DNA of 64,000 nt from a virus: positions 1 to 64,000 of the IMG/VR virus record IMGVR_UViG_3300034418_008897, one strand, 5' to 3'. The position numbers and the translations under genes were made by a program. Positions within the stretch are counted from its first letter, which is position 1; each line of letters begins with the position of its first letter. Under the pieces are notes generated by a model. The model saw nothing but the letters and a program-made list of their open reading frames with translations, ran no database searches and was not told the origin of the DNA. This document shows, piece after piece, positions 1 to 64,000 of the stretch.

Positions 1-3000
1 GATTTCTTTTACAATTTTTAATTCTTGCTCTAAATCTTTTACTTCTTCTAATTCACCTTCTTCTTTCTTTTCTTCGATCTCTAATTCTAAATCTTCTTCA
101 CTTTTCCCAGACAAATTAATATCAAATTCAATTTCTACGGGGTCTTCTGTATTTAAATTTAATATTAAATTTTCTTCGTTATTTAATAAACCTTTTTCTT
201 CTTTTATTTTTAATATTTCGTCGTTAATCTCAGCTTTATCAGAAATAGTTATATCTTCAATGTCAGATAATTTATTCATTAAAATATCGAACCCTCTAGG
301 AGTAACTTCTTGATTAGCTAGTTGGATGAATTCAGATTTTATTGTAGCTACATATTTTTTGTAACCCTCTTCATTATTAGCTTCATTTTCTATATCAGCT
401 GTATTATCAACTAGTTCATTAAAATATTTATCTGTAAAAATCACTTTATCCTGATCAACAGAACTTATAGCTTTATCTATACTGTTTTTCCAAGATTCTA
501 GGTTAGTAGTATCATCTCCTCTTTGAGTAGCTCTATTAATAAATGTTTCTTTATCTATAGATATTATTTTATCAAAGTCTTTTGCATTTTCTCTTAAAAA
601 TAACATATCAGAAACCACAAGAAATTTATTTGTTTGCTTTGCTTCAATTAAAGCCTCACCCCAATATTTCCTCATAAGGTCGCTAAATTTTTCTTCATTT
701 TTAGGATCCTGTTTACGCCATTCATTTAAACCCTCACTGTTTTGTTTATCTATAGGCAGCTCTAATTCTTCTGCGATTTTTGGTTTAAAGTCTGTATCAA
801 AGTCTAAAACAGTGTCAGGATTATTTTCTTTAAAAGTAGTTTTACCTAAGCCTGGGTGCCCCCAAATAATTTTATCTTGGGGTTCTAAATAGTCAGTATA
901 GGTAATAGGTTCAACGTCTTCTGCTTTTTTAACAATATAAGTAAATTCGTCTTCTTTCAATAATTTATTAGAAGCTATACCGTCTTCGTAAGCATTACCA
1001 TAGTCATCAAATACTATAGCTTTATTTACACCTTTATTATTATCAAAAATAATCTTTCTATCTCCATCCCATTTTTTAACTATATAAGACACTCCTTTGA
1101 TTTTTATTTCTGTGCCTTCAGAAATCTCAGCTAAATATTTTTCTAGTAATTCTCTAGCTTTTTCTTTTTTAGCCAAGTTTTCCTCAATTCTTCTTTTTTC
1201 TGCCTCTTCTTTTTCTTTTTCTTCTTCTGCTCTTAATTTAGAATCTTTTTTAACAGCTTCTGCGTTTATAGGTTGTATGGTAGAATACATAGCTATTTTT
1301 AAATCTTTTGCTTCACGAGCTAAACTTTCATCCAATGATTTATCTACTATGAAAATATCATCTGAAATTACAGAATTTAATGTTCTACTAGTTTCATTAT
1401 GTATATAAGAAAAATATCTTGCTCTTCCTATAGTTGTAGCTAATTTAGAAGCAGCTGCTTTTTCTTTAATAGAAGCGTTAGCCCCATGAGATGCAAAAGA
1501 ATCTCCTATATCCTCTTTAGTAACAATAGAAATAACGTAATCAAATTCTTGTCCTTGAACAGAATTATGAGTAGTTAATTTAAAATTATCTCTGTAAGAC
1601 TTTATTAACGTACCTAATTTAGTATCTTCAGCTGGCACATCTTGCAAAGAAGGTAAAATTATACCAATTTTAAATGGCTCTGAATCTCCTTCTTTTATAG
1701 CATCTTCTATATTACGTTGTATATTATTTATGAATTCTTCATCATTAAATAAGTCTTGTCTAGTTTTACCTTTTTCTGAAAATTTAATACCACCTAATAA
1801 TTTTTCATCTGTGCCTTGAACATAACCGTAGCTGGAAGTAATATTATCAACGTTATTATCTGCTGTAAATAATACTTTTAAATTTTCCTTATTTTCTTTT
1901 AAAATTTTATTTCGTACAAATATATTTATGGATTCTATACGAGTCCTAAAATTATAAATTAATTTAGGAGTTCTAAAAAAGCCTATAGCAGCAGATAAAT
2001 TTTTAGGTTCTCCGTCTTTACTGTAGTATCCATTTTGAGATGGATCTCCTGTAAAAATAATTCTTAAAGCAGGTTCATTTGTTTTTTCCCTTGCTTTATT
2101 TATATCTTCTACTTTTTGCAGTAATTTAGCTAAGTCAGTTTTATTTTTATAATCTACTTTTTTAGCATCTTCACGAGTATATTCTAAGTAAGTAGCTTCA
2201 TCAAAAACAATAGCATTTATATCTTTTGTGTTTTCTATTTTAGATAAAAATCCTAGTAGTTTTTTAGGTGTCCATTTACCATTAACAACCTCTTCCGAGT
2301 GAAATGAATGCTCACTAGTAGAAACACCAAATTTTTGCATTGTTTTACTTAATATATCAACTTGTTCAGGTTGATTAGAAGCCAATAAAACTTTACCTTC
2401 ATTTATTATTTGAGCTATTTTTAAAGCAGTTCCTAATACATAAGAAGATTTACCTGAACCTTGCACACCGTAAACTACAGCTGCATGCCTATTTCCTTCT
2501 TCATTATTGTACGCGTAATCTATAAATTTAGAGCCTGCATCAGAAGTTAACTGAGCTACTAGCTCCATAATAACAGTATCTTGTTCTCCAGTAGAAGTTT
2601 CTGGTCCCTCAGATTCTTGTAATATTTTATTATATTCGCTATAAAATAATTCTCTGTTTAGTTCTAAAGTTATAAATGCATTTTTTATTTTTTCTTTTTT
2701 TGCTGTGTCTGCTAAAGGAGAATTATTTTCTGTTAAAGCTGATACATATATAGTGTAAGCATCTATTATTTTACTTTTTTCTTCTGATGATAAATTAAAT
2801 AATAAAGATTTTACAGCTGTAACTTTTTCAAAGTTTGCTATTATATCTTCATCAAGTTTAAAACGTTCATCTTGAGTTCTTTCAGCCGTCCAATTTGTGT
2901 AATCTTTTATTATTTCGTTACTACCTAAATCAGTTGCATCTAATAAACTTAATAATTCATCCTCTTCTTTTTTCATAGCAGAGATCATACTATCTTTATG

Positions 3001-6000
3001 TATAGTAGCGCCGCCCTTTAAATTTTCTTTACCTTCTTTTGCTAATTCTTCTAAGGATTCTAATCTGTTTTTTAAATCTTTTAAAAAAACATAGCTTTCA
3101 GATAAAGCATTTACTTTTCCAGATAAAATAGAAAATTCTTTTTCTTCTTCTTTAGTTTTATTTTCTTTGTTAAATAATTCTGCGTATTTATTATTATCTT
3201 GTATTAAAGAACCAAAAGTAGATGCATTTAAATTAGGATATAACTTTTTTAAATTGTCATAGGCTAAAACTCCTTTAGTAGTATTGGTTTTAATTTTTTC
3301 TTCTCCTGTGTCTAAGTCAATGTAAGAAAAAGAATTAGATTGTAATAAAAAATCAACTTGTTCTAAACGGGCCTTTACTTGAAATAAAGCAGATTGGACT
3401 TCTTCTAGAGAGTTAAAAGTGTTTATATTAGGGTTTTTTATTCTTTCGTCATTTTTTTGTTTTTCTAAAGCTTCAATTATATCTTTTAAATTATTAGAAC
3501 TTTTTAATTTATTTTTATCTCCGCTAAACCCTTTAATTAAATGCTCTACACTTTTAGCTCCCTTTAAGTAATCTAATTCCTCTAAGTCAACTAAATTTTC
3601 TTTATTTTTAGTTAGAGCATGTAATTCCTTTAAAAGTAAATAATCTTCACTTTCAAAATTTAAATATTCATTATATTTAGCTAAACCTTTTATTCTATTT
3701 AAAGTAATTTTATCATATAAATTTATTTTTATTTGTTCAACTAAAGCTCTAAAATCTACTAAAGTATTAGACTCTGAATTTAATAAATCCTCTAATTTTT
3801 CTTCATAACTTATAGGTATACCATATTCATCAATTAATTCAGGTAATAATTGGTCAGCCGTCAACCCTACTAAGTTCAATAACGGTGTTTTTAATGGGTC
3901 ATTAAACTCAACAGCTTCTAGTTCTTTGATAGTTTCTGCTGACTTTATATCAAAATCAATTTTGTTTTTATAAAAATTTTGAGCTAGAAATAAGTATCTA
4001 TTTTTTGCATCTTCACTTGTTAATGAATTATACTCCGGTGATTTTGTAATGTTTTCTACACTATAAAACTCTTCTGCTTTTTTAGTTAACTTTTCTTTAA
4101 AATTTTTTATACTTTTTTCTGGGGATTCATAATTTTCGTATAAATCTGTGATTTTGTCCTTAGCTTTTTGAGATAAATAAACTATTTTACCTTCCTTTAA
4201 TAAGTGAGTAATAGTATCTATATTAGATAAATCATTTTTTAGTTCACTTATTAGCTTGTCGTTTTCTTTTATTACATTCGCTATTTCTTCAAAATTTTCT
4301 TCAGAAGCTTCAATTTCCTCTTCAGAATTTTGTATTAAATTATACAATATATTCTTACCAAATTTTTCTTGCATGTCTTCAGATAGATTATCATAATCTA
4401 AAGAAGTACCTTTTGATAAAGCTTCAAAGAAATATTTAGACGCAGACTTACCAGTTTTTATATCGTTAAGCTCTTTTTCTATTTCTACTAATCTTTCTAC
4501 ACTAGCAGTATCCATATTATAAGCAGTAGCAAAATTATCTATTTTTTGTTTCTGCTCATCTTCTGTTAATTTAGGATCATAAATAGTTCTAGAACCATTA
4601 GGATTACTACTAGGTTCAGCTCCTGCTGTAGCCATAATATCTAAGTACTCTCTACTTAAATCTTTAATATCTTTTACTAAAGAGTTGTCAGTTAGAGCCT
4701 TTACTATTTCTGGTTTATTTTTAGCAATTTGTTTAAATATATCTACACCGCCTAAAGCATTTATAACAGAATTAACGTACTCGTATTGTTGCAATAAAAT
4801 ATCTTTAGTGGCATCATTCATACTTTGCAACTTATTATCTTCAGTTACAGGTATAAAAGTTTGAGTTTCAGGGTCATAAACTGTACTAAGTTTAGTATCT
4901 GCTAATTTACCTTCTTTATGTAATTTATTTATAGCATCTTTATAAGCCTCTCCTTGACCAGACATAGCATAATCAAGCATACTTTCTTTAACTTCATTTT
5001 GGTGAGGTTCGCCTAATATTTTTCTAAATCCCGGGGCTTTAGTTATTGCACCACCAATAAAACCACCCACAGCACTACTAGTTATACCTTCTTTAAAATA
5101 CTCCCAATAACCAGGATCGTAAGGACTTAAAAAATGTCCTTCTCTACCACCTTCTGCTTCCCAAGGAAACATATGTTTTAAAGCTTGGAATCCTTGTTTT
5201 ACTGCTTCTTCTGATAAAAATTCAGCTGTTTCTTCTGCTGCTTCTTTAGTACCAGATTCTAAAACACCTAAAATACCAGGGGCAGTTTTAGCCCAGTTTT
5301 CTGAAATGCTACTTAATTTAGAAGTATTTTTAGCTATATTACCCATAGTTTTACTAAAAATATTTTTAGTAACTTTACCGGCTGTTTCATCTAATATAGC
5401 TTTTTTAGCTGATTCCTCACTAGCTTCATCTGCCATTCTAAGACCGCTGATAATAGTTTTATGTAAACCGTCTATTTCCGGCTTCATAACTTTCATTACT
5501 GATTTAGCAGTAGCCCAAGATTCATAAGCATTTTGTAACGGGTTCATAAACTTATTAACTAACAACATAGAACCAAAAACACCTGTATATAAAGTAGCAG
5601 CTTCTCTAGCACTAAAACCAGCCGCCAAAGCAGATTGGTAAGTGTCTTTAGCACCGTACAAACTCATACCAACTATAGATCCTGTTGCAGCAGCTTTATT
5701 ATATAAAGACCCTGTTTGTAATGCTCTTAAAGCAGCTTTAGAACCTAACCCGGCCCCAGCTCTTAAACCATAACTAGTCAAAGCTACAGCCGAAGAAGCC
5801 ATAGCACGACCAGACAGTAATTGTAAAATTACATCTGAAACCAACCCAGCAGCAGCATCCCAACTGCCTAAAGCGCTACCTTCTCTTGTTTCAGCAGCAG
5901 GTTTAATAGTAGCTAAGTTTGTTCTAAGTAATACAGGAGCCCAGTCTTCTGCTGCTTCATTACCTCTAATAAAACTATCTGCTGCAGCCCCTAAATTTAT

Positions 6001-6870
6001 AACTGTACCTTCTATACCAGAAGCAAAATTTAAAAGAGATCTAGGAACAAAATCGAAAGCACCTGCTTCTCTAGAAGTTCTAGGGTTATAAATATCCCAA
6101 ATAGATGCTGTTTCTAAATGAGCGCTATCTAAATATTCTCCTTCTAGTATGGCTTGATATCCAGGTTTCATTTTAGATCCTTCTTGAGTAGACCCTTCTC
6201 TGTAAGCCCAACCCATTACTTTTTTCCCATTTACTAAAAAAGAAGGATTGTCTATAGCATAATAAGCACCGCTAGCATCATCATCTGAAAAATAAGCAAC
6301 TGCTTCGTTTATTAAGTTTGATATTTTAGTAAAAGGGTTATCTGTAGGTAAGTTAGGGTGAGCAAATCTATAAGAGTTCATTACTTCTTCTTTACTAGGC
6401 ATTTTATGTGCTTTACCATCAGAAGTAAAAAATATATCAGAATCTGCATGTGCTTTAAATATATCTACAGTAGGAGCAGTTATTTCTCCAAATAAAACTC
6501 TAGCTCCGTCTAAACTAGCATCCGTTGCTCTTACATCAGTCATTACTTTTCTTTCTTTATGACCTGTTAAGTAACCCATACCAGGCATAGCAAAGTATTC
6601 AGATGTAGCAAAAACATTAAATTTACCCTCCCTATAATTTTGATAATCTTTAGCTAATACGTTGTAATCAGCTTCTATTTTATTTTTATATTCATCGCCA
6701 AACTCATTTTTATAAGCTTCAACAATCTGTGGGTCTTGTAAATAATCTTCTTTAGGTTTTAAATCAAATTCTTGTTCTGGGTTGTTATTTAAAATATCAG
6801 CGTAATTTCCCGACATTTGATTCAAAGTTCTTTCGTAAAACCAATCTTTACTTTTAATATTTTCTGGCAT
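1..6870 (-). CDS. Giant (>2290 aa, runs off the window) virion cargo/polyvalent protein with an Ala/Gly hydrophobic region, an SF1 helicase and a P-loop kinase domain; may be the virion RNA polymerase-associated polyprotein
   Basis: ATG at 6870 (MPENIKSKDWFYERT...). The frame was spot-translated at several points and is open at position 1; the track lists no minus-strand ORF here, consistent with no stop. Helicase motifs: VYGVQGSGKSS (~2440-2480), IVFDEATY (~2190-2215), IIFTGDPSQ (~2035-2065), THNSVQGQEFDYV (~1535-1575), ATTIGRAR (~1415-1440). Kinase: IIWGHPGLGKTT (~835-870). No RNAP catalytic motif seen inside the window. Confidence 0.85.
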   Translation of the reverse strand, partial: MPENIKSKDWFYERTLNQMSGNYADILNNNPEQEFDLKPKEDYLQDPQIVEAYKNEFGDEYKNKIEADYNVLAKDYQNYREGKFNVFATSEYFAMPGMGYLTGHKERKVMTDVRATDASLDGARVLFGEITAPTVDIFKAHADSDIFFTSDGKAHKMPSKEEVMNSYRFAHPNLPTDNPFTKISNLINEAVAYFSDDDASGAYYAIDNPSFLVNGKKVMGWAYREGSTQEGSKMKPGYQAILEGEYLDSAHLETASIWDIYNPRTSREAGAFDFVPRSLLNFASGIEGTVINLGAAADSFIRGNEAAEDWAPVLLRTNLATIKPAAETREGSALGSWDAAAGLVSDVILQLLSGRAMASSAVALTSYGLRAGAGLGSKAALRALQTGSLYNKAAATGSIVGMSLYGAKDTYQSALAAGFSAREAATLYTGVFGSMLLVNKFMNPLQNAYESWATAKSVMKVMKPEIDGLHKTIISGLRMADEASEESAKKAILDETAGKVTKNIFSKTMGNIAKNTSKLSSISENWAKTAPGILGVLESGTKEAAEETAEFLSEEAVKQGFQALKHMFPWEAEGGREGHFLSPYDPGYWEYFKEGITSSAVGGFIGGAITKAPGFRKILGEPHQNEVKESMLDYAMSGQGEAYKDAINKLHKEGKLADTKLSTVYDPETQTFIPVTEDNKLQSMNDATKDILLQQYEYVNSVINALGGVDIFKQIAKNKPEIVKALTDNSLVKDIKDLSREYLDIMATAGAEPSSNPNGSRTIYDPKLTEDEQKQKIDNFATAYNMDTASVERLVEIEKELNDIKTGKSASKYFFEALSKGTSLDYDNLSEDMQEKFGKNILYNLIQNSEEEIEASEENFEEIANVIKENDKLISELKNDLSNIDTITHLLKEGKIVYLSQKAKDKITDLYENYESPEKSIKNFKEKLTKKAEEFYSVENITKSPEYNSLTSEDAKNRYLFLAQNFYKNKIDFDIKSAETIKELEAVEFNDPLKTPLLNLVGLTADQLLPELIDEYGIPISYEEKLEDLLNSESNTLVDFRALVEQIKINLYDKITLNRIKGLAKYNEYLNFESEDYLLLKELHALTKNKENLVDLEELDYLKGAKSVEHLIKGFSGDKNKLKSSNNLKDIIEALEKQKNDERIKNPNINTFNSLEEVQSALFQVKARLEQVDFLLQSNSFSYIDLDTGEEKIKTNTTKGVLAYDNLKKLYPNLNASTFGSLIQDNNKYAELFNKENKTKEEEKEFSILSGKVNALSESYVFLKDLKNRLESLEELAKEGKENLKGGATIHKDSMISAMKKEEDELLSLLDATDLGSNEIIKDYTNWTAERTQDERFKLDEDIIANFEKVTAVKSLLFNLSSEEKSKIIDAYTIYVSALTENNSPLADTAKKEKIKNAFITLELNRELFYSEYNKILQESEGPETSTGEQDTVIMELVAQLTSDAGSKFIDYAYNNEEGNRHAAVVYGVQGSGKSSYVLGTALKIAQIINEGKVLLASNQPEQVDILSKTMQKFGVSTSEHSFHSEEVVNGKWTPKKLLGFLSKIENTKDINAIVFDEATYLEYTREDAKKVDYKNKTDLAKLLQKVEDINKAREKTNEPALRIIFTGDPSQNGYYSKDGEPKNLSAAIGFFRTPKLIYNFRTRIESINIFVRNKILKENKENLKVLFTADNNVDNITSSYGYVQGTDEKLLGGIKFSEKGKTRQDLFNDEEFINNIQRNIEDAIKEGDSEPFKIGIILPSLQDVPAEDTKLGTLIKSYRDNFKLTTHNSVQGQEFDYVISIVTKEDIGDSFASHGANASIKEKAAASKLATTIGRARYFSYIHNETSRTLNSVISDDIFIVDKSLDESLAREAKDLKIAMYSTIQPINAEAVKKDSKLRAEEEKEKEEAEKRRIEENLAKKEKARELLEKYLAEISEGTEIKIKGVSYIVKKWDGDRKIIFDNNKGVNKAIVFDDYGNAYEDGIASNKLLKEDEFTYIVKKAEDVEPITYTDYLEPQDKIIWGHPGLGKTTFKENNPDTVLDFDTDFKPKIAEELELPIDKQNSEGLNEWRKQDPKNEEKFSDLMRKYWGEALIEAKQTNKFLVVSDMLFLRENAKDFDKIISIDKETFINRATQRGDDTTNLESWKNSIDKAISSVDQDKVIFTDKYFNELVDNTADIENEANNEEGYKKYVATIKSEFIQLANQEVTPRGFDILMNKLSDIEDITISDKAEINDEILKIKEEKGLLNNEENLILNLNTEDPVEIEFDINLSGKSEEDLELEIEEKKEEGELEEVKDLEQELKIVKEI

Positions 6871-36857: not shown

Positions 36858-37478
36858 TTATTTTTTGTATATTAAACTATTTAAAATACCGCCTTTTTTC
36901 CATAATTCAGTACAAGCTAAATGTCTTGCTGTACCTGGTTTCGCAGTACTACATTTATGTCTTGCTTTAAAAGCTTTTCTTTTGGAGTCTACATTATTTA
37001 CATAACGTTTATCTCCTGCATGGACTAGTTTCTTTTTACCATCTATACAGTAAAGCTTCATAATTTTTTTATGCTTACGGGTAGATCTTTTAGTTTGACC
37101 GCATTTCATATCTGATTTTACAGACCCGCCCTTTTTATATAGCAACATTCCTAATTTAGCTTTTGAAACTTTTTTACCCATACCTTTATTTTTCTTTTCG
37201 GATATTTTCTTTTTTAAATTTTTACCTTTAGGCATATTAGGAGTTTTTGAGCTGACTTTTTTACTGGGTCTACAATACTCAGTTTTACCACCTGAACCGC
37301 AATCTTCACCAGAAATTTTATCTTTCCATTTTTCGTCTCCCCATCTTTTTAAATCCGACCCTTTTTTAGTTTTTCTTACATCTCCTTTAGACTTTCTACA
37401 TTTAGCAATAAGTTGACTACGCCTAGCAGAGTTGGGCATTTTAGCAGCAAATTTTTTATAACAAGCATCTTTACTCAT
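36858..37478 (-). CDS. Highly basic Cys-containing protein, two small domains joined by the tag
   Basis: Very Lys-rich; LKRWGDEKW..CG..YCRP and KLVHAGD.RY...AFKARHKC...LAC.ELW domains; MLLYKKGG linker and LWKKGGIL end. Confidence 0.65.
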   Translation of the reverse strand: MSKDACYKKFAAKMPNSARRSQLIAKCRKSKGDVRKTKKGSDLKRWGDEKWKDKISGEDCGSGGKTEYCRPSKKVSSKTPNMPKGKNLKKKISEKKNKGMGKKVSKAKLGMLLYKKGGSVKSDMKCGQTKRSTRKHKKIMKLYCIDGKKKLVHAGDKRYVNNVDSKRKAFKARHKCSTAKPGTARHLACTELWKKGGILNSLIYKK

Positions 37479-38044
37479 TACTTAGCTAATTCAGCCATCT
37501 CGTTATCTAAAAACCTTAAAGCAGTAGCATCTGTACCAAATGCTTCTAGCTTGTCTAACCAAGTTTGCATTTTAGTAAGCTCTTCATGTTGTTCTTTAAC
37601 ATATTTCAAAGCAAGCTCATATAACATATGATCTCCATGAGACATTGCTGCAGATGCTAATTCTTTGCATTGTTTAGTGATCTCTACCTCATGCTCATAA
37701 GATTTTTGTATAATATCTGGTAATCCTTTATAATCAGAAATTATCTTAGGCATTTCTCTTATTTCAGGTTGTATACCTAAACCTAAAAGATAAGCTCTAG
37801 CCCAATCTACATGGGCCATTTCTTCATGAGCATATTTATGCCATAAAGCCCCAGCTCCAGTATAACCTAAATTATCTAAAAACATGTACATATCTTCATA
37901 CATTCGAGAAGACTTTTCTTCTTCTTGAGCGCGAAAATTTAACATATCTATACAATGCTCGCTAATCAAACTATTTTTGATTAACTTTTTTTCAGTTTTA
38001 TCTCCTGTTGGAGTGTCGTTATTTAAAATCTCTTTTAAAGCCAT
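37478..38044 (-). CDS. Ferritin (non-heme FtnA-like)
   Basis: Ferroxidase-centre pattern: EEEKSSRMY, AHEEMAH, YEHEVEIT, YVKEQHEE; four-helix length. Confidence 0.88.
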   Translation of the reverse strand: MALKEILNNDTPTGDKTEKKLIKNSLISEHCIDMLNFRAQEEEKSSRMYEDMYMFLDNLGYTGAGALWHKYAHEEMAHVDWARAYLLGLGIQPEIREMPKIISDYKGLPDIIQKSYEHEVEITKQCKELASAAMSHGDHMLYELALKYVKEQHEELTKMQTWLDKLEAFGTDATALRFLDNEMAELAK

Positions 38045-61968: not shown

Positions 61969-62862
61969 TTATTTTTTATACAATAAACCGCCTTTTTTGA
62001 ATTTGTAAGTTTTAACAGCTTTAGCATATTGTCTTTCAAACTCAGGGTTAGATTTATATAAAATTTTATTTACATAATCTCTAGTTTCTCTAGGTAGCTC
62101 GTTCATCCACTCTTTCCCTTTATAAATATCTACGCCTTTTTTCTTTTGTTCATTCAAATATTCTAAAAAATTACCTCTTCCATGGTTGTAAGCTGCTAAA
62201 GTTTTAGCTAACCTTATCTCATTAGATTGATTAGGTTTATTAATGAAAGATGCATTATACAAATCAGTCATGTACCATTTCTGAATCTTAGCACTAACTT
62301 CAGGATCATATAAACTATCTGTAGATTTTATTATTCCTGCTTTTACAGCATCCCCCTTTACATCAGGCATTATTTGCGCTAAGCCAGCAGCACCAGCGGG
62401 AGATACTGATTTAGGGTTAAAGCTAGATTCTTTAAATTGTTGTCTTAATAAAAAATCATTAGTGAATATTTCAGAATTTACTTTAGGCTCTGCTTTAGGC
62501 TCAGGTTTAGCATCTGATACAAGTTTAGGCTCAGAAGAATCTTTAATATATCTTTCTGGTTTTTCTGGTTCACCAAAGAAAGACTTACCATAAGCAGGTA
62601 CATCTGTTCTTAGTTGTGTAGATGGTAATCTAAGCTCATCATTTAACTTTGATTTGCGAGATCCATCGGGGTCTTTTATAGCTACATAGTAACCATTAGT
62701 ACTTTCATTCTTTATAAACCAATCATCAAAAGCATCTTTCATATAAGTAGATCCTGGTCTTTCAGGGTGTACATATATTTTTTTATCGAAAATATCTGCT
62801 TCATTTATAGTTCTACCTGGAGCTTTAGGTTTTGGTTTTTTATCGTTGTACAATAAAGACAT
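61969..62862 (-). CDS. Tagged lytic transglycosylase (SLT domain)
   Basis: ATG at 62862 (MSLLYN) preferred; KESSFNPKSVSPAGAAGLAQIMP, LAAYNHG, LPRETRDYVNKI; ends FKKGGLLYKK. Confidence 0.9.
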   Translation of the reverse strand: MSLLYNDKKPKPKAPGRTINEADIFDKKIYVHPERPGSTYMKDAFDDWFIKNESTNGYYVAIKDPDGSRKSKLNDELRLPSTQLRTDVPAYGKSFFGEPEKPERYIKDSSEPKLVSDAKPEPKAEPKVNSEIFTNDFLLRQQFKESSFNPKSVSPAGAAGLAQIMPDVKGDAVKAGIIKSTDSLYDPEVSAKIQKWYMTDLYNASFINKPNQSNEIRLAKTLAAYNHGRGNFLEYLNEQKKKGVDIYKGKEWMNELPRETRDYVNKILYKSNPEFERQYAKAVKTYKFKKGGLLYKK

Positions 62863-62870
62863 AATTAAAA

Positions 62871-63125
62871 TCAATTCATTAAACTAAATTTTTGTCTGTA
62901 AGCTAATTTCTTACTAACTACCTCATTATCAGCAATTTCTCTTACAGAACAAAATATAATATTTTCTTCTCCATACTTATCATACATATTTTGTATAGCT
63001 TCTACAGGATGTTTTCCTTCTCTTAAAAGCTTAAGATGTACAGAAACACTAGCATTAAAATCTTGAGTAGTATTAATGTAGATGTACTCATCTTGTATAC
63101 TAGTTATGTAGTAAAGAGTTGCCAT
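62871..63125 (-). CDS. Degenerate GIY-YIG-like protein
   Basis: TLYYIT...YIYINTT...HLKLLREGKH....IQ.MYDKYGEENIIF. Confidence 0.6.
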   Translation of the reverse strand: MATLYYITSIQDEYIYINTTQDFNASVSVHLKLLREGKHPVEAIQNMYDKYGEENIIFCSVREIADNEVVSKKLAYRQKFSLMN

Positions 63126-63205: not shown

Positions 63206-63952
63206 TTAAAATCTATATTTTAAACCTGCTCTGATATTATAATTAGAGTCGTATTTACCTTTATCATATCTACCTTCTAAATTACCTGATAATTTAGGCG
63301 TGAAATATTTTTCGGCATTAATATTAGCGCCTACTCTGTAGTTTTCATTCTTACCTAGACCTTTTTCAGCGGAAGCAGAAACCCCTAAATAACCATTCTT
63401 CAAAGGCACTCCTTTATTAACATTATAGCCTAAAGAAAAGCTAGGGCGGCTTATACCTTTATATGTCACAAATTCAGGAAATCCGGGTGCACTAGGTATT
63501 TTATCCATAGCGTAGTTAGCCTCAGCCTTGACCCCTAGGGACCCTAAATTTTTAGGTAAGTCTTTGTATAAACTAGACTCGAACCTATTAAACTCTTCTA
63601 TCTGCGGATATTGTTCTATTATTTTTTCACCATTTTTATCTACATCTTCATAAATTCTCATTCTCTTTGCCTTCTCAAGGCTAGCCATACCATCAACTCT
63701 AAAACCTTTAGGCAAAGCAGCACCAGCACCACCCATTTTCATATAGTCATTGGGAGCTTCTAATCTTTCTTCATGGCTCCACCCATAAGCAGTAGGATTC
63801 CATCTACCAACAGGAGCTGATAAATTTATCCTAGGTTCTTCTTTTTCTACTAAAGGGCTGGTATTCATAAACTTATGTTTAAGGTCTAAATCCTTTATAT
63901 AGGAATTTATAGTACCTTCTGTTTGATATTTTTTAGTATATAGTAAAGACAT
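63206..63952 (-). CDS. Tagged protein with outer-membrane beta-barrel-like C-terminal half
   Basis: Starts MSLLYTKKYQTEG; amphipathic strands; ends YNIRAGLKYRF. Confidence 0.6.
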   Translation of the reverse strand: MSLLYTKKYQTEGTINSYIKDLDLKHKFMNTSPLVEKEEPRINLSAPVGRWNPTAYGWSHEERLEAPNDYMKMGGAGAALPKGFRVDGMASLEKAKRMRIYEDVDKNGEKIIEQYPQIEEFNRFESSLYKDLPKNLGSLGVKAEANYAMDKIPSAPGFPEFVTYKGISRPSFSLGYNVNKGVPLKNGYLGVSASAEKGLGKNENYRVGANINAEKYFTPKLSGNLEGRYDKGKYDSNYNIRAGLKYRF

Positions 63953-64000
63953 AATTATTTTTTATTATATAATATTCCTCCTTTGTTAAACTTATAACTA

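Follow-up and report, generated by a model that had tools for sequence, protein, structure and literature searches.

How might a protein that is predicted to fold like a bacterial outer-membrane protein (OMP), and that has no signal peptide, reach an outer membrane? This question was raised by a minus-strand gene near the end of the first 64,000 nucleotides of the IMG/VR virus record IMGVR_UViG_3300034418_008897. This stretch, bases 1-64000 of the 80,524-base record, is the window of the present analysis, and all positions are counted along it. The gene (P0001, here called the barrel gene) encodes a 248-aa protein that begins with a short peptide shared with other genes of the same phage (the tag) and ends in an OMP-like C-terminus; its parts are listed in Table 1. 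A preliminary description, made from the DNA letters, had proposed a beta-barrel that carries the tag instead of a signal peptide, is delivered from the virion, and perhaps forms the outer-membrane part of the ejection conduit or acts in superinfection exclusion. The predicted barrel and the missing signal peptide held in the analysis reported here, and delivery and role were inferred from gene context and analogy.

Reading frame, C-terminal signature and predicted fold

The ATG of the barrel gene (63950-63952) lies 2 nt after the TAA of the preceding gene. Its own frame is open for 251 codons, and a TAA stands four codons upstream of the ATG; therefore, a longer N-terminus is not possible, and the upstream start that could have supplied a signal peptide, a case foreseen in the preliminary description, was checked and does not exist. 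A recoded stop was ruled out together with the upstream start, as the in-frame stop is TAA, which is not among the stops recoded by crassviruses, and the genome is open in table 11 throughout.

An estuary metagenome holds a diverged copy of the gene, with 20 differences over about 588 covered bases. Because 16 of the 19 changed codons in this variant are synonymous (third-position changes), the frame is a real gene under purifying selection. In a metatranscriptome library, two 151-nt contigs, for which DNA carry-over is possible, were identical to the barrel gene and give a weak hint of its expression.

Kyte-Doolittle analysis confirmed that the protein has no hydrophobic Sec signal: the maximum 8-residue mean within the first 45 residues was 0.76, and the maximum 19-residue mean over the whole length was 0.39, so that no hydrophobic or transmembrane helix was found either. 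The four homologues described below likewise had no signal peptide, hydrophobic stretch or transmembrane helix on this scale. The Sec signal peptide of bacterial OMPs is thus absent from all five members of the family.

The published C-terminal signature of OMPs has Phe or Trp as the last residue and, counted from the C-terminus, hydrophobic ones at positions 3 (where Tyr is preferred), 5, 7 and 9 (PMC1634882). The barrel protein ends in I-R-A-G-L-K-Y-R-F, and all these positions are occupied as in the signature (F248, Y246, L244, A242, and I240). The 80.5-kb genome has 129 open reading frames (ORFs) with a length of at least 60 aa; of these, the barrel gene alone gave a full match, while 0.19 ORFs were expected from composition (0.023 with Tyr required at position 3). 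The earlier claim that the terminal YNIRAGLKYRF follows the beta-signal pattern was therefore borne out, in the form of the full published signature and as a feature unique among these ORFs.

Two of the homologues (P0003 and P0004) also matched the signature in full, and the other two (P0005 and P0008) matched at 3/4 positions, with Gly at position 7. The end K-Y-[R/N]-F was invariant in 5/5 family members, and the terminal signature was the best conserved block of the family apart from the tag. Taken alone, the signature of the barrel protein is suggestive; its conservation strengthens it. None of the five members contains Cys, and Gly, Asn, Tyr, Ser and Ala together make up 38-40% of their residues.

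Structure prediction was carried out with AlphaFold2 (AF2). The single-sequence model had a predicted local distance difference test score (pLDDT) of 33.6. With a 4-sequence alignment, the mean pLDDT was 61.9 and the predicted template modelling score (pTM) 0.50; residues 56-246 formed an all-beta meander with pLDDT mostly 70-83, and residues 1-58 were disordered. DSSP assigned strands to residues 56-66, 69-80, 84-104, 110-131, 138-153, 161-167, 171-184, 187-199, 205-216, 221-232, and 236-246, and no helix of more than 5 residues was present in the model.

VIA-align, a Foldseek-independent method in which unmatched models typically reach Z 7-8 according to the tool's note, was used to compare the model with 48,161 PDB representatives. 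The top 46 matches were all membrane beta-barrels (Z 11.9 downward, within 11-12), with 170-200 residues aligned at 3-5 A, and included OmpG, NalP, BrkA, FhaC, EspP, a PgaA-type secretin, KdgM, TamA, BamA, and Sam50. The best Foldseek match was the beta-domain of the autotransporter BrkA (E 7.5e-5), and OmpT, NalP and EspP were matched as well, at TM-scores of 0.25-0.40. An independent model of the exact barrel protein in the ESM Atlas (pLDDT 0.61) had ten listed neighbours, all of them outer-membrane barrels [autotransporter, Omp85, ShlB, FadL, and DUF2490/OMP_b-brl; TM 0.48-0.64 by query]. The Atlas feature neighbours Attacin_C and Gloverin stood at 0.87-0.88, under the lead level of 0.9, and their likeness to the barrel protein is probably one of composition only. 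A homotrimer prediction for residues 50-248 gave a score of 0.00, which is neither support nor counter-evidence.

On these models, the best-supported fold is an OMP-type antiparallel barrel of about 10-12 strands, which we consider fairly probable. Its robust OMP-like part is the last eight strands (about residues 121-248). Except for the signal peptide and the family thresholds, the modelled protein resembles a small bacterial OMP in structure. The barrel of the preliminary description was thus upheld as a prediction, AF2, VIA-align, Foldseek and the ESM Atlas all pointing to outer-membrane-type barrels, and monomer prediction did not return the soluble non-barrel fold that would have spoken against it. 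The peptides quoted there (SLGVKAEANY, FSLGYNV, YLGVSASAE, YRVGANINAE, LSGNLEGRY, and YNIRAGLKYRF) were all present in the minus-strand translation. The picture of about six strands in the C-terminal half was probably an undercount, as the sheet in the models reaches back to about residue 56.

Shared tag, relatives and gene neighbourhood

From 6896 to 63952 in the window, and further up to 66121, 11 late-strand genes begin with variants of the tag, M-S-L-L-Y-x-K-K-[YF]-Q-x-G. Four proteins, of 206, 301, 474, and 601 aa, carry a permuted form, [FW]-x-K-G-G-[IL]-L-...-Y-K-K, at their C-terminus or inside. The tag is short, Lys-rich and not hydrophobic. Its codons vary between copies (Ser TCT/AGT/TCA/TCG; Leu TTA/CTA/TTG); therefore, it is the peptide that is conserved and not a DNA repeat, and a repeat or recombination linker at the DNA level was ruled out. 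It is a short N-terminal leader common to otherwise unrelated proteins of one phage, and it is kept in a second phage. The N- and C-terminal forms could pair with each other or mark processing sites.

When the 25 nt before the starts of ten tagged genes were inspected, the leaders were A/T-rich and showed no purine run of Shine-Dalgarno type, which fits a Bacteroidota-type host.

An exhaustive phmmer search against 1.84 billion representatives revealed one relative besides the protein itself (P0003, E 2.5e-10), and word-indexed profile searches added P0004, P0005, and P0008. These homologues were 23-35% identical to the barrel protein. As P0003 and P0005 aligned over their whole length (33% identity, E 3e-23), the five sequences, which come from three lineages, form one family. 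All five members begin with the tag, as M[SA]LLYK.K or MLLYKYK. The four database relatives all lie on phage-like contigs, and the gene neighbourhood was read for P0008. No bacterial homologue was found in the phmmer and profile searches; thus, nothing points to a host OMP that was captured recently.

Family searches with the barrel protein returned no Pfam match even at E up to 10, nor with the C-terminal 123 residues alone, and no PHROG or NCBIfam family at threshold. A search of the phage genome with PF13505 (OMP_b-brl) gave no match, in a scan that returned no control loci. The sole Pfam match of any member was that of P0004 to OpcA, a 10-strand OMP (PF07239, E 0.023, 14.8 bits against a cut-off of 26.3). 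In tblastn and megablast searches against 50,697 phage records, the barrel gene had no match, and pattern scans of viral contigs and, with P0003, of metagenome contigs yielded no confirmed relative. A profile search of PDB sequences found a proteasome subunit (E 0.78), which was set aside as a chance match.

Matches of a 471-aa protein to Crass_capsid (E 5.8e-17), of a 1792-aa protein to the crassvirus muzzle family (crAss_MUZ, E 1.5e-33), and of a 231-aa protein to tail ring protein 2 (CrAss_Ring_2) assign the record to the crassviruses, and on these sequence matches it is a crass-like phage. The terminase and portal were recognised by PHROGs. The large genes of the window are all encoded on the minus strand, and the G+C content is about 31%. 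DNA of the phage occurs in freshwater metagenomes, and the diverged copy comes from an estuary sample. The closest deposited phages are MT835470 and MT835492, unannotated human-gut 'Bacteriophage sp.' entries with 37-40% identity in the major capsid protein. The barrel family is absent from both of them, and the stretches of these genomes that were read, 41 kb and 28 kb long, showed no tag.

Upstream of the genes for terminase and portal, the head of the late strand is formed by an array of tagged genes, to which the barrel gene belongs (Table 1). The short gene just downstream of it matches weakly the N-terminal part of GIY-YIG-type homing endonucleases and is far below the length of the full enzyme. 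The next array member encodes a protein with an SLT lytic transglycosylase domain; its true start is likely the ATG at 62862 (MSLLYNDKK). This protein carries the tag at its N-terminus and FKKGGLLYKK at its C-terminus, and among the PHROG families that it matches are 'internal virion protein with endolysin domain' and 'lytic tail protein'.

In the related phage that encodes P0008, on a 69-kb IMG/VR contig, the homologue is the second gene of a tagged array that follows a divergent early/late junction. It is followed by one gene and then by an 85-aa gene, the counterpart of the 84-aa gene (33% identity). When the tags were stripped, few other array members were common to both phages. Since the barrel gene is syntenic while other array members differ, it looks like a core gene in a variable array.

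Table 1. Features of the barrel gene and neighbouring genes; numbering beyond 64,000 continues into the rest of the record.
Feature	Position	Strand	Basis or remark
Barrel gene (P0001), 248 aa	63206..63952	minus	Stop codon 63206-63208; ORF list and translation
N-terminal shared tag, residues 1-13 (MSLLYTKKYQTEG)	63914..63952	minus	Motif on 11 late-strand genes; kept in four homologues
Polar linker, residues 14-55, predicted disordered	63788..63913	minus	AF2 pLDDT <50 for residues 1-58; no hydrophobic stretch
Predicted transmembrane-type beta-barrel domain, residues 56-248	63209..63787	minus	11 DSSP strands, AF2
C-terminal OMP insertion signature (beta-signal) YNIRAGLKYRF, residues 238-248	63209..63241	minus	Match to the definition in PMC1634882
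Preceding tagged gene, 474 aa (P0007), 3' end	63955..64000, runs to 65379	minus	N-terminal tag and C-terminal permuted copy FNKGGILYNK
84-aa neighbour, GIY-YIG-like stub, just downstream of the barrel gene	62871..63125	minus	phrog_7168, E 1.7e-4
Tagged SLT lytic transglycosylase, next array member	61969..62874	minus	Pfam SLT, E 5.6e-17
First late-strand gene, tagged, 245 aa (P0006)	65384-66121	minus	Gly/Asn/Tyr-rich, OMP-like strand patterns

The product of the first late-strand gene, P0006, ends in a basic tail without a terminal Phe. Its sole family hint was the outer-membrane barrel family TP0733 (E 0.0017, far below the cut-off), and no homology to the barrel protein was detected beyond the tag. 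Exactly between the divergent early (plus-strand) and late (minus-strand) blocks, the G+C content rises to 50-63% over an island (66300-66650) that contains runs of 8-9 G and in which an Rfam scan found no family. At the equivalent junction of the related phage (about 8500-8900 of the locus), spurious ORFs with G+C-rich-looking translations were seen.

Two further loci were observed in the window. A ferritin-like domain protein (37478-38044, minus strand; Pfam Ferritin, E 7e-18) is encoded in the middle of the crassvirus ring/tail module, and its gene adjoins that of a DUF5872 protein with a C-terminal copy of the tag. At the end of the record, a giant ORF of more than 2290 aa (1-6870, minus strand) runs off the sequence; it had only weak matches, of helicase type (AAA_12 and Schlafen group 3 helicase) and not to RNA polymerase, and directly upstream of it lie three tagged or tag-like genes of 696, 408, and 101 aa.

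Proposed route to the outer membrane and rival explanations

Virion delivery of the barrel protein is suggested by the tag on 11 late genes, one of them encoding the SLT enzyme, by the position of the gene in the late operon, and by the lack of an export signal. In the route that we propose, the protein would be made in the cytoplasm late in infection and could not use Sec. The tag would recruit it, together with the SLT enzyme and other tagged proteins, into the cargo space of the procapsid or tail. In the next infection it would be extruded in an unfolded state, pass through the tail and reach the envelope of a diderm host, which is probably a member of the Bacteroidota. There the C-terminal signature would guide its folding into the outer membrane, either via the barrel-assembly machinery (BAM) of the host or spontaneously; by analogy, an unfolded OMP leaving a narrow tail would resemble one emerging from Sec. 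The inserted barrel would anchor or nucleate the ejection conduit at its outer-membrane end. With about 10-12 strands, a barrel that is monomeric would be too narrow for double-stranded DNA; therefore, an anchor or nucleus is favoured over a DNA channel formed by the barrel itself.

The full chain, from loading by the tag through ejection and outer-membrane insertion to the anchoring of a conduit, is put forward tentatively, as a possibility that falls somewhat short of an even chance, with packaging, ejection, insertion, the use of BAM and the final role all inferred. More specifically, a crassvirus might hand a virion-carried, unfolded OMP to the host BAM by means of the beta-signal and so build an outer-membrane anchor or port, with the shared 10-residue peptide as a general, transferable tag that loads cargo into virions of crass-like phages; this specific form is doubtful.

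Several points weigh against the proposed route. The known ejection proteins that form outer-membrane pores are small helical proteins (T7 gp14, P22 gp7, and DEV gp73). The transfer to BAM is a further difficulty, as the unfolded OMP would have to pass from a tail that stands outside the cell to the side of BAM that faces the periplasm. A role of the tag as a cargo-loading signal would be an analogy with the leader peptides of T4 and the cargo of crAss001 (see below), and its permuted form also occurs at C-termini and inside proteins, unlike the T4 leader. The nearest database phages are uncultured. As for the fold, no OMP sequence family reached threshold for any member. The alignment behind the model held 4 sequences from three lineages, the confidence of the models was moderate, and the Foldseek TM-scores were as low as stated above. 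The DSSP strand count of 11 is odd, while OMP barrels are even-numbered. When the 66 ORFs with a length of at least 100 aa were ranked by a simple period-2 hydrophobic-moment count, the barrel protein came 2nd, but its homologues were unremarkable. Strands 84-131 are highly charged; in the model they may represent a long extracellular hairpin as in OmpT and OpcA, or may be mis-modelled.

The main rival explanation draws on such doubts about the fold. In it, the product carries the tag and serves in the virion or its assembly, with a beta-rich domain that is soluble or sits in the particle, for example as a lining or plug of the tail barrel or as a piece of the internal core. The barrel-like models and the terminal Y-x-F would then reflect amphipathic hairpins and not membrane insertion. 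The moderate confidence of the model (pLDDT 62, pTM 0.50) with its shallow alignment, the low TM-scores, the very polar strands 84-131, and the OMP family that is not detectable by sequence all agree with such a protein; soluble sheets also alternate in hydrophobicity, and the period-2 count was not decisive. However, two independent predictors gave a barrel whose top structural neighbours are all membrane barrels, no block except the tag is better conserved than the full OMP C-terminal signature with its terminal Phe, and all members are Cys-free and rich in Gly, Asn and Tyr. On this balance a soluble particle protein is rather unlikely.

A true OMP barrel could also act on the producing cell at lysis, in a spanin- or disruptin-like disruption of the outer membrane. 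It would reach the periplasm through holin lesions or another non-Sec route and insert into, or overload, the outer membrane or BAM. The predicted barrel with its beta-signal, the lack of an export signal, the late-strand context and the nearby cell-wall enzymes such as SLT would all suit this explanation, and unassembled OMPs with intact signatures are toxic to BAM (background in PMC1634882). However, the small membrane proteins that make up the candidate lysis cluster are encoded far off (about 13.9-16.4 kb), the sharing of the tag with more than 10 large unrelated proteins would be left unaccounted for, and SLT enzymes that match internal virion proteins point to entry and not to exit, so that action at lysis appears quite improbable.

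Very unlikely indeed is a tag that serves as an unconventional export or targeting signal and places the barrel in the infected cell's own outer membrane, for example to mask receptors or exclude superinfection. The tag does sit exactly where a signal peptide is expected, and several tagged proteins are envelope-active enzymes. However, as a short, Lys-rich peptide that is not hydrophobic, the tag is unlike Sec, Tat and lipoprotein signals, and copies of it are also present internally and at C-termini. The tagged genes belong to the late structural strand and not to the early genes, and neither a translocon candidate nor evidence of superinfection exclusion was found in this analysis.

If delivery from the virion and insertion into the outer membrane are correct, the protein would be a beta-barrel type of ejection protein, which is new, and the first of its kind. 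An ejected OMP without an export signal would take a different route to the membrane, one that uses the barrel-assembly pathway of the host, and would be a bacterial-virus counterpart of mitochondrial barrel import; if the hijacking of BAM is real, this would come close to something new in kind. The tag would then be a candidate portable signal for loading foreign proteins into crass-like particles. Among gut phages, crassviruses are the most abundant. An experimental handle would be offered by the terminal Phe and by the tag, each of which is short and can be mutated. If the barrel is instead a soluble part of the virion, the gene would be an ordinary orphan structural gene.

Comparison with known systems

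The proposed job of the barrel protein is that of T7 gp14, P22 gp7 and DEV gp73, small virion-carried proteins that are ejected first, into the outer membrane of the host. The barrel gene also lies near the gene of a lytic-transglycosylase-bearing protein, as in the gp14-gp15-gp16 block of T7. However, these ejection proteins are helical and predicted to contain a hydrophobic helix, and they assemble into oligomeric pores through which DNA can fit, whereas the phage barrel is predicted to be all-beta and has no hydrophobic helix; it is not a member of this group. For the crossing of the outer membrane by podoviruses, structural detail is available for few phages only, and the pore proteins are helical. 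No ejection protein with a beta-barrel, and no porin in Crassvirales, was described in the literature library searched.

Among crassviruses, the virion of crAss001 stores about 5.5 MDa of cargo proteins that are proposed to be extruded partly unfolded, and channel-forming cargo is still only assumed (PMC10172136). The cargo proteins C1 and C2 (gp45 and gp46) of crAss001 belong to the same virus order, and no sequence similarity to the barrel protein was found. While gp45 is helical with a predicted transmembrane helix, the barrel protein is predicted to be all-beta, and the cargo genes of crAss001 adjoin RNA polymerase genes, whereas the barrel gene stands at the head of the late strand upstream of the terminase gene. 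Term searches of PMC10172136 found no shared tag.

The diverse internal proteins of T4 have a single feature in common, a short conserved capsid targeting sequence (PMC3012670). The tag resembles it as a short N-terminal leader that is the sole feature common to otherwise unrelated phage proteins. It differs in sequence and in having permuted copies at C-termini and internal junctions, and a prohead protease or cleavage site was not identified.

Bacterial outer-membrane barrels of 10-14 strands (NalP/BrkA/EspP, KdgM/NanC, OmpG, OmpT, and OpcA) are similar to the barrel protein in predicted meander and size (VIA Z 10.9-11.9), in the C-terminal Y-x-F signature and in the lack of Cys. In contrast to them, the phage protein has no Sec signal peptide, no OMP membership in Pfam or NCBIfam, no passenger domain and no plug helix; it is encoded in a late operon behind a phage-specific N-terminal tag, and its relatives are on phage-like contigs only. 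An autotransporter beta-domain would have a 12-strand barrel with a linker helix in the pore and a passenger, whereas only a disordered N-terminus of 55 residues precedes the barrel here. Phage lambda Lom and the Ail/Lom family are likewise small outer-membrane barrels encoded by phages, and the barrel protein had no Pfam match to that family. Unlike the barrel protein, Lom carries a signal peptide, and its expression is from the prophage.

The barrels of mitochondria and plastids have a C-terminal beta-signal and no Sec signal. Another channel takes them across the outer membrane, and a machine of the Omp85 family inserts them from inside. The likeness to the barrel protein, a beta-signal without a Sec signal, is an analogy with eukaryotic organelles, and no homology is implied; by this analogy, a beta-signal without a Sec signal would be a workable arrangement.

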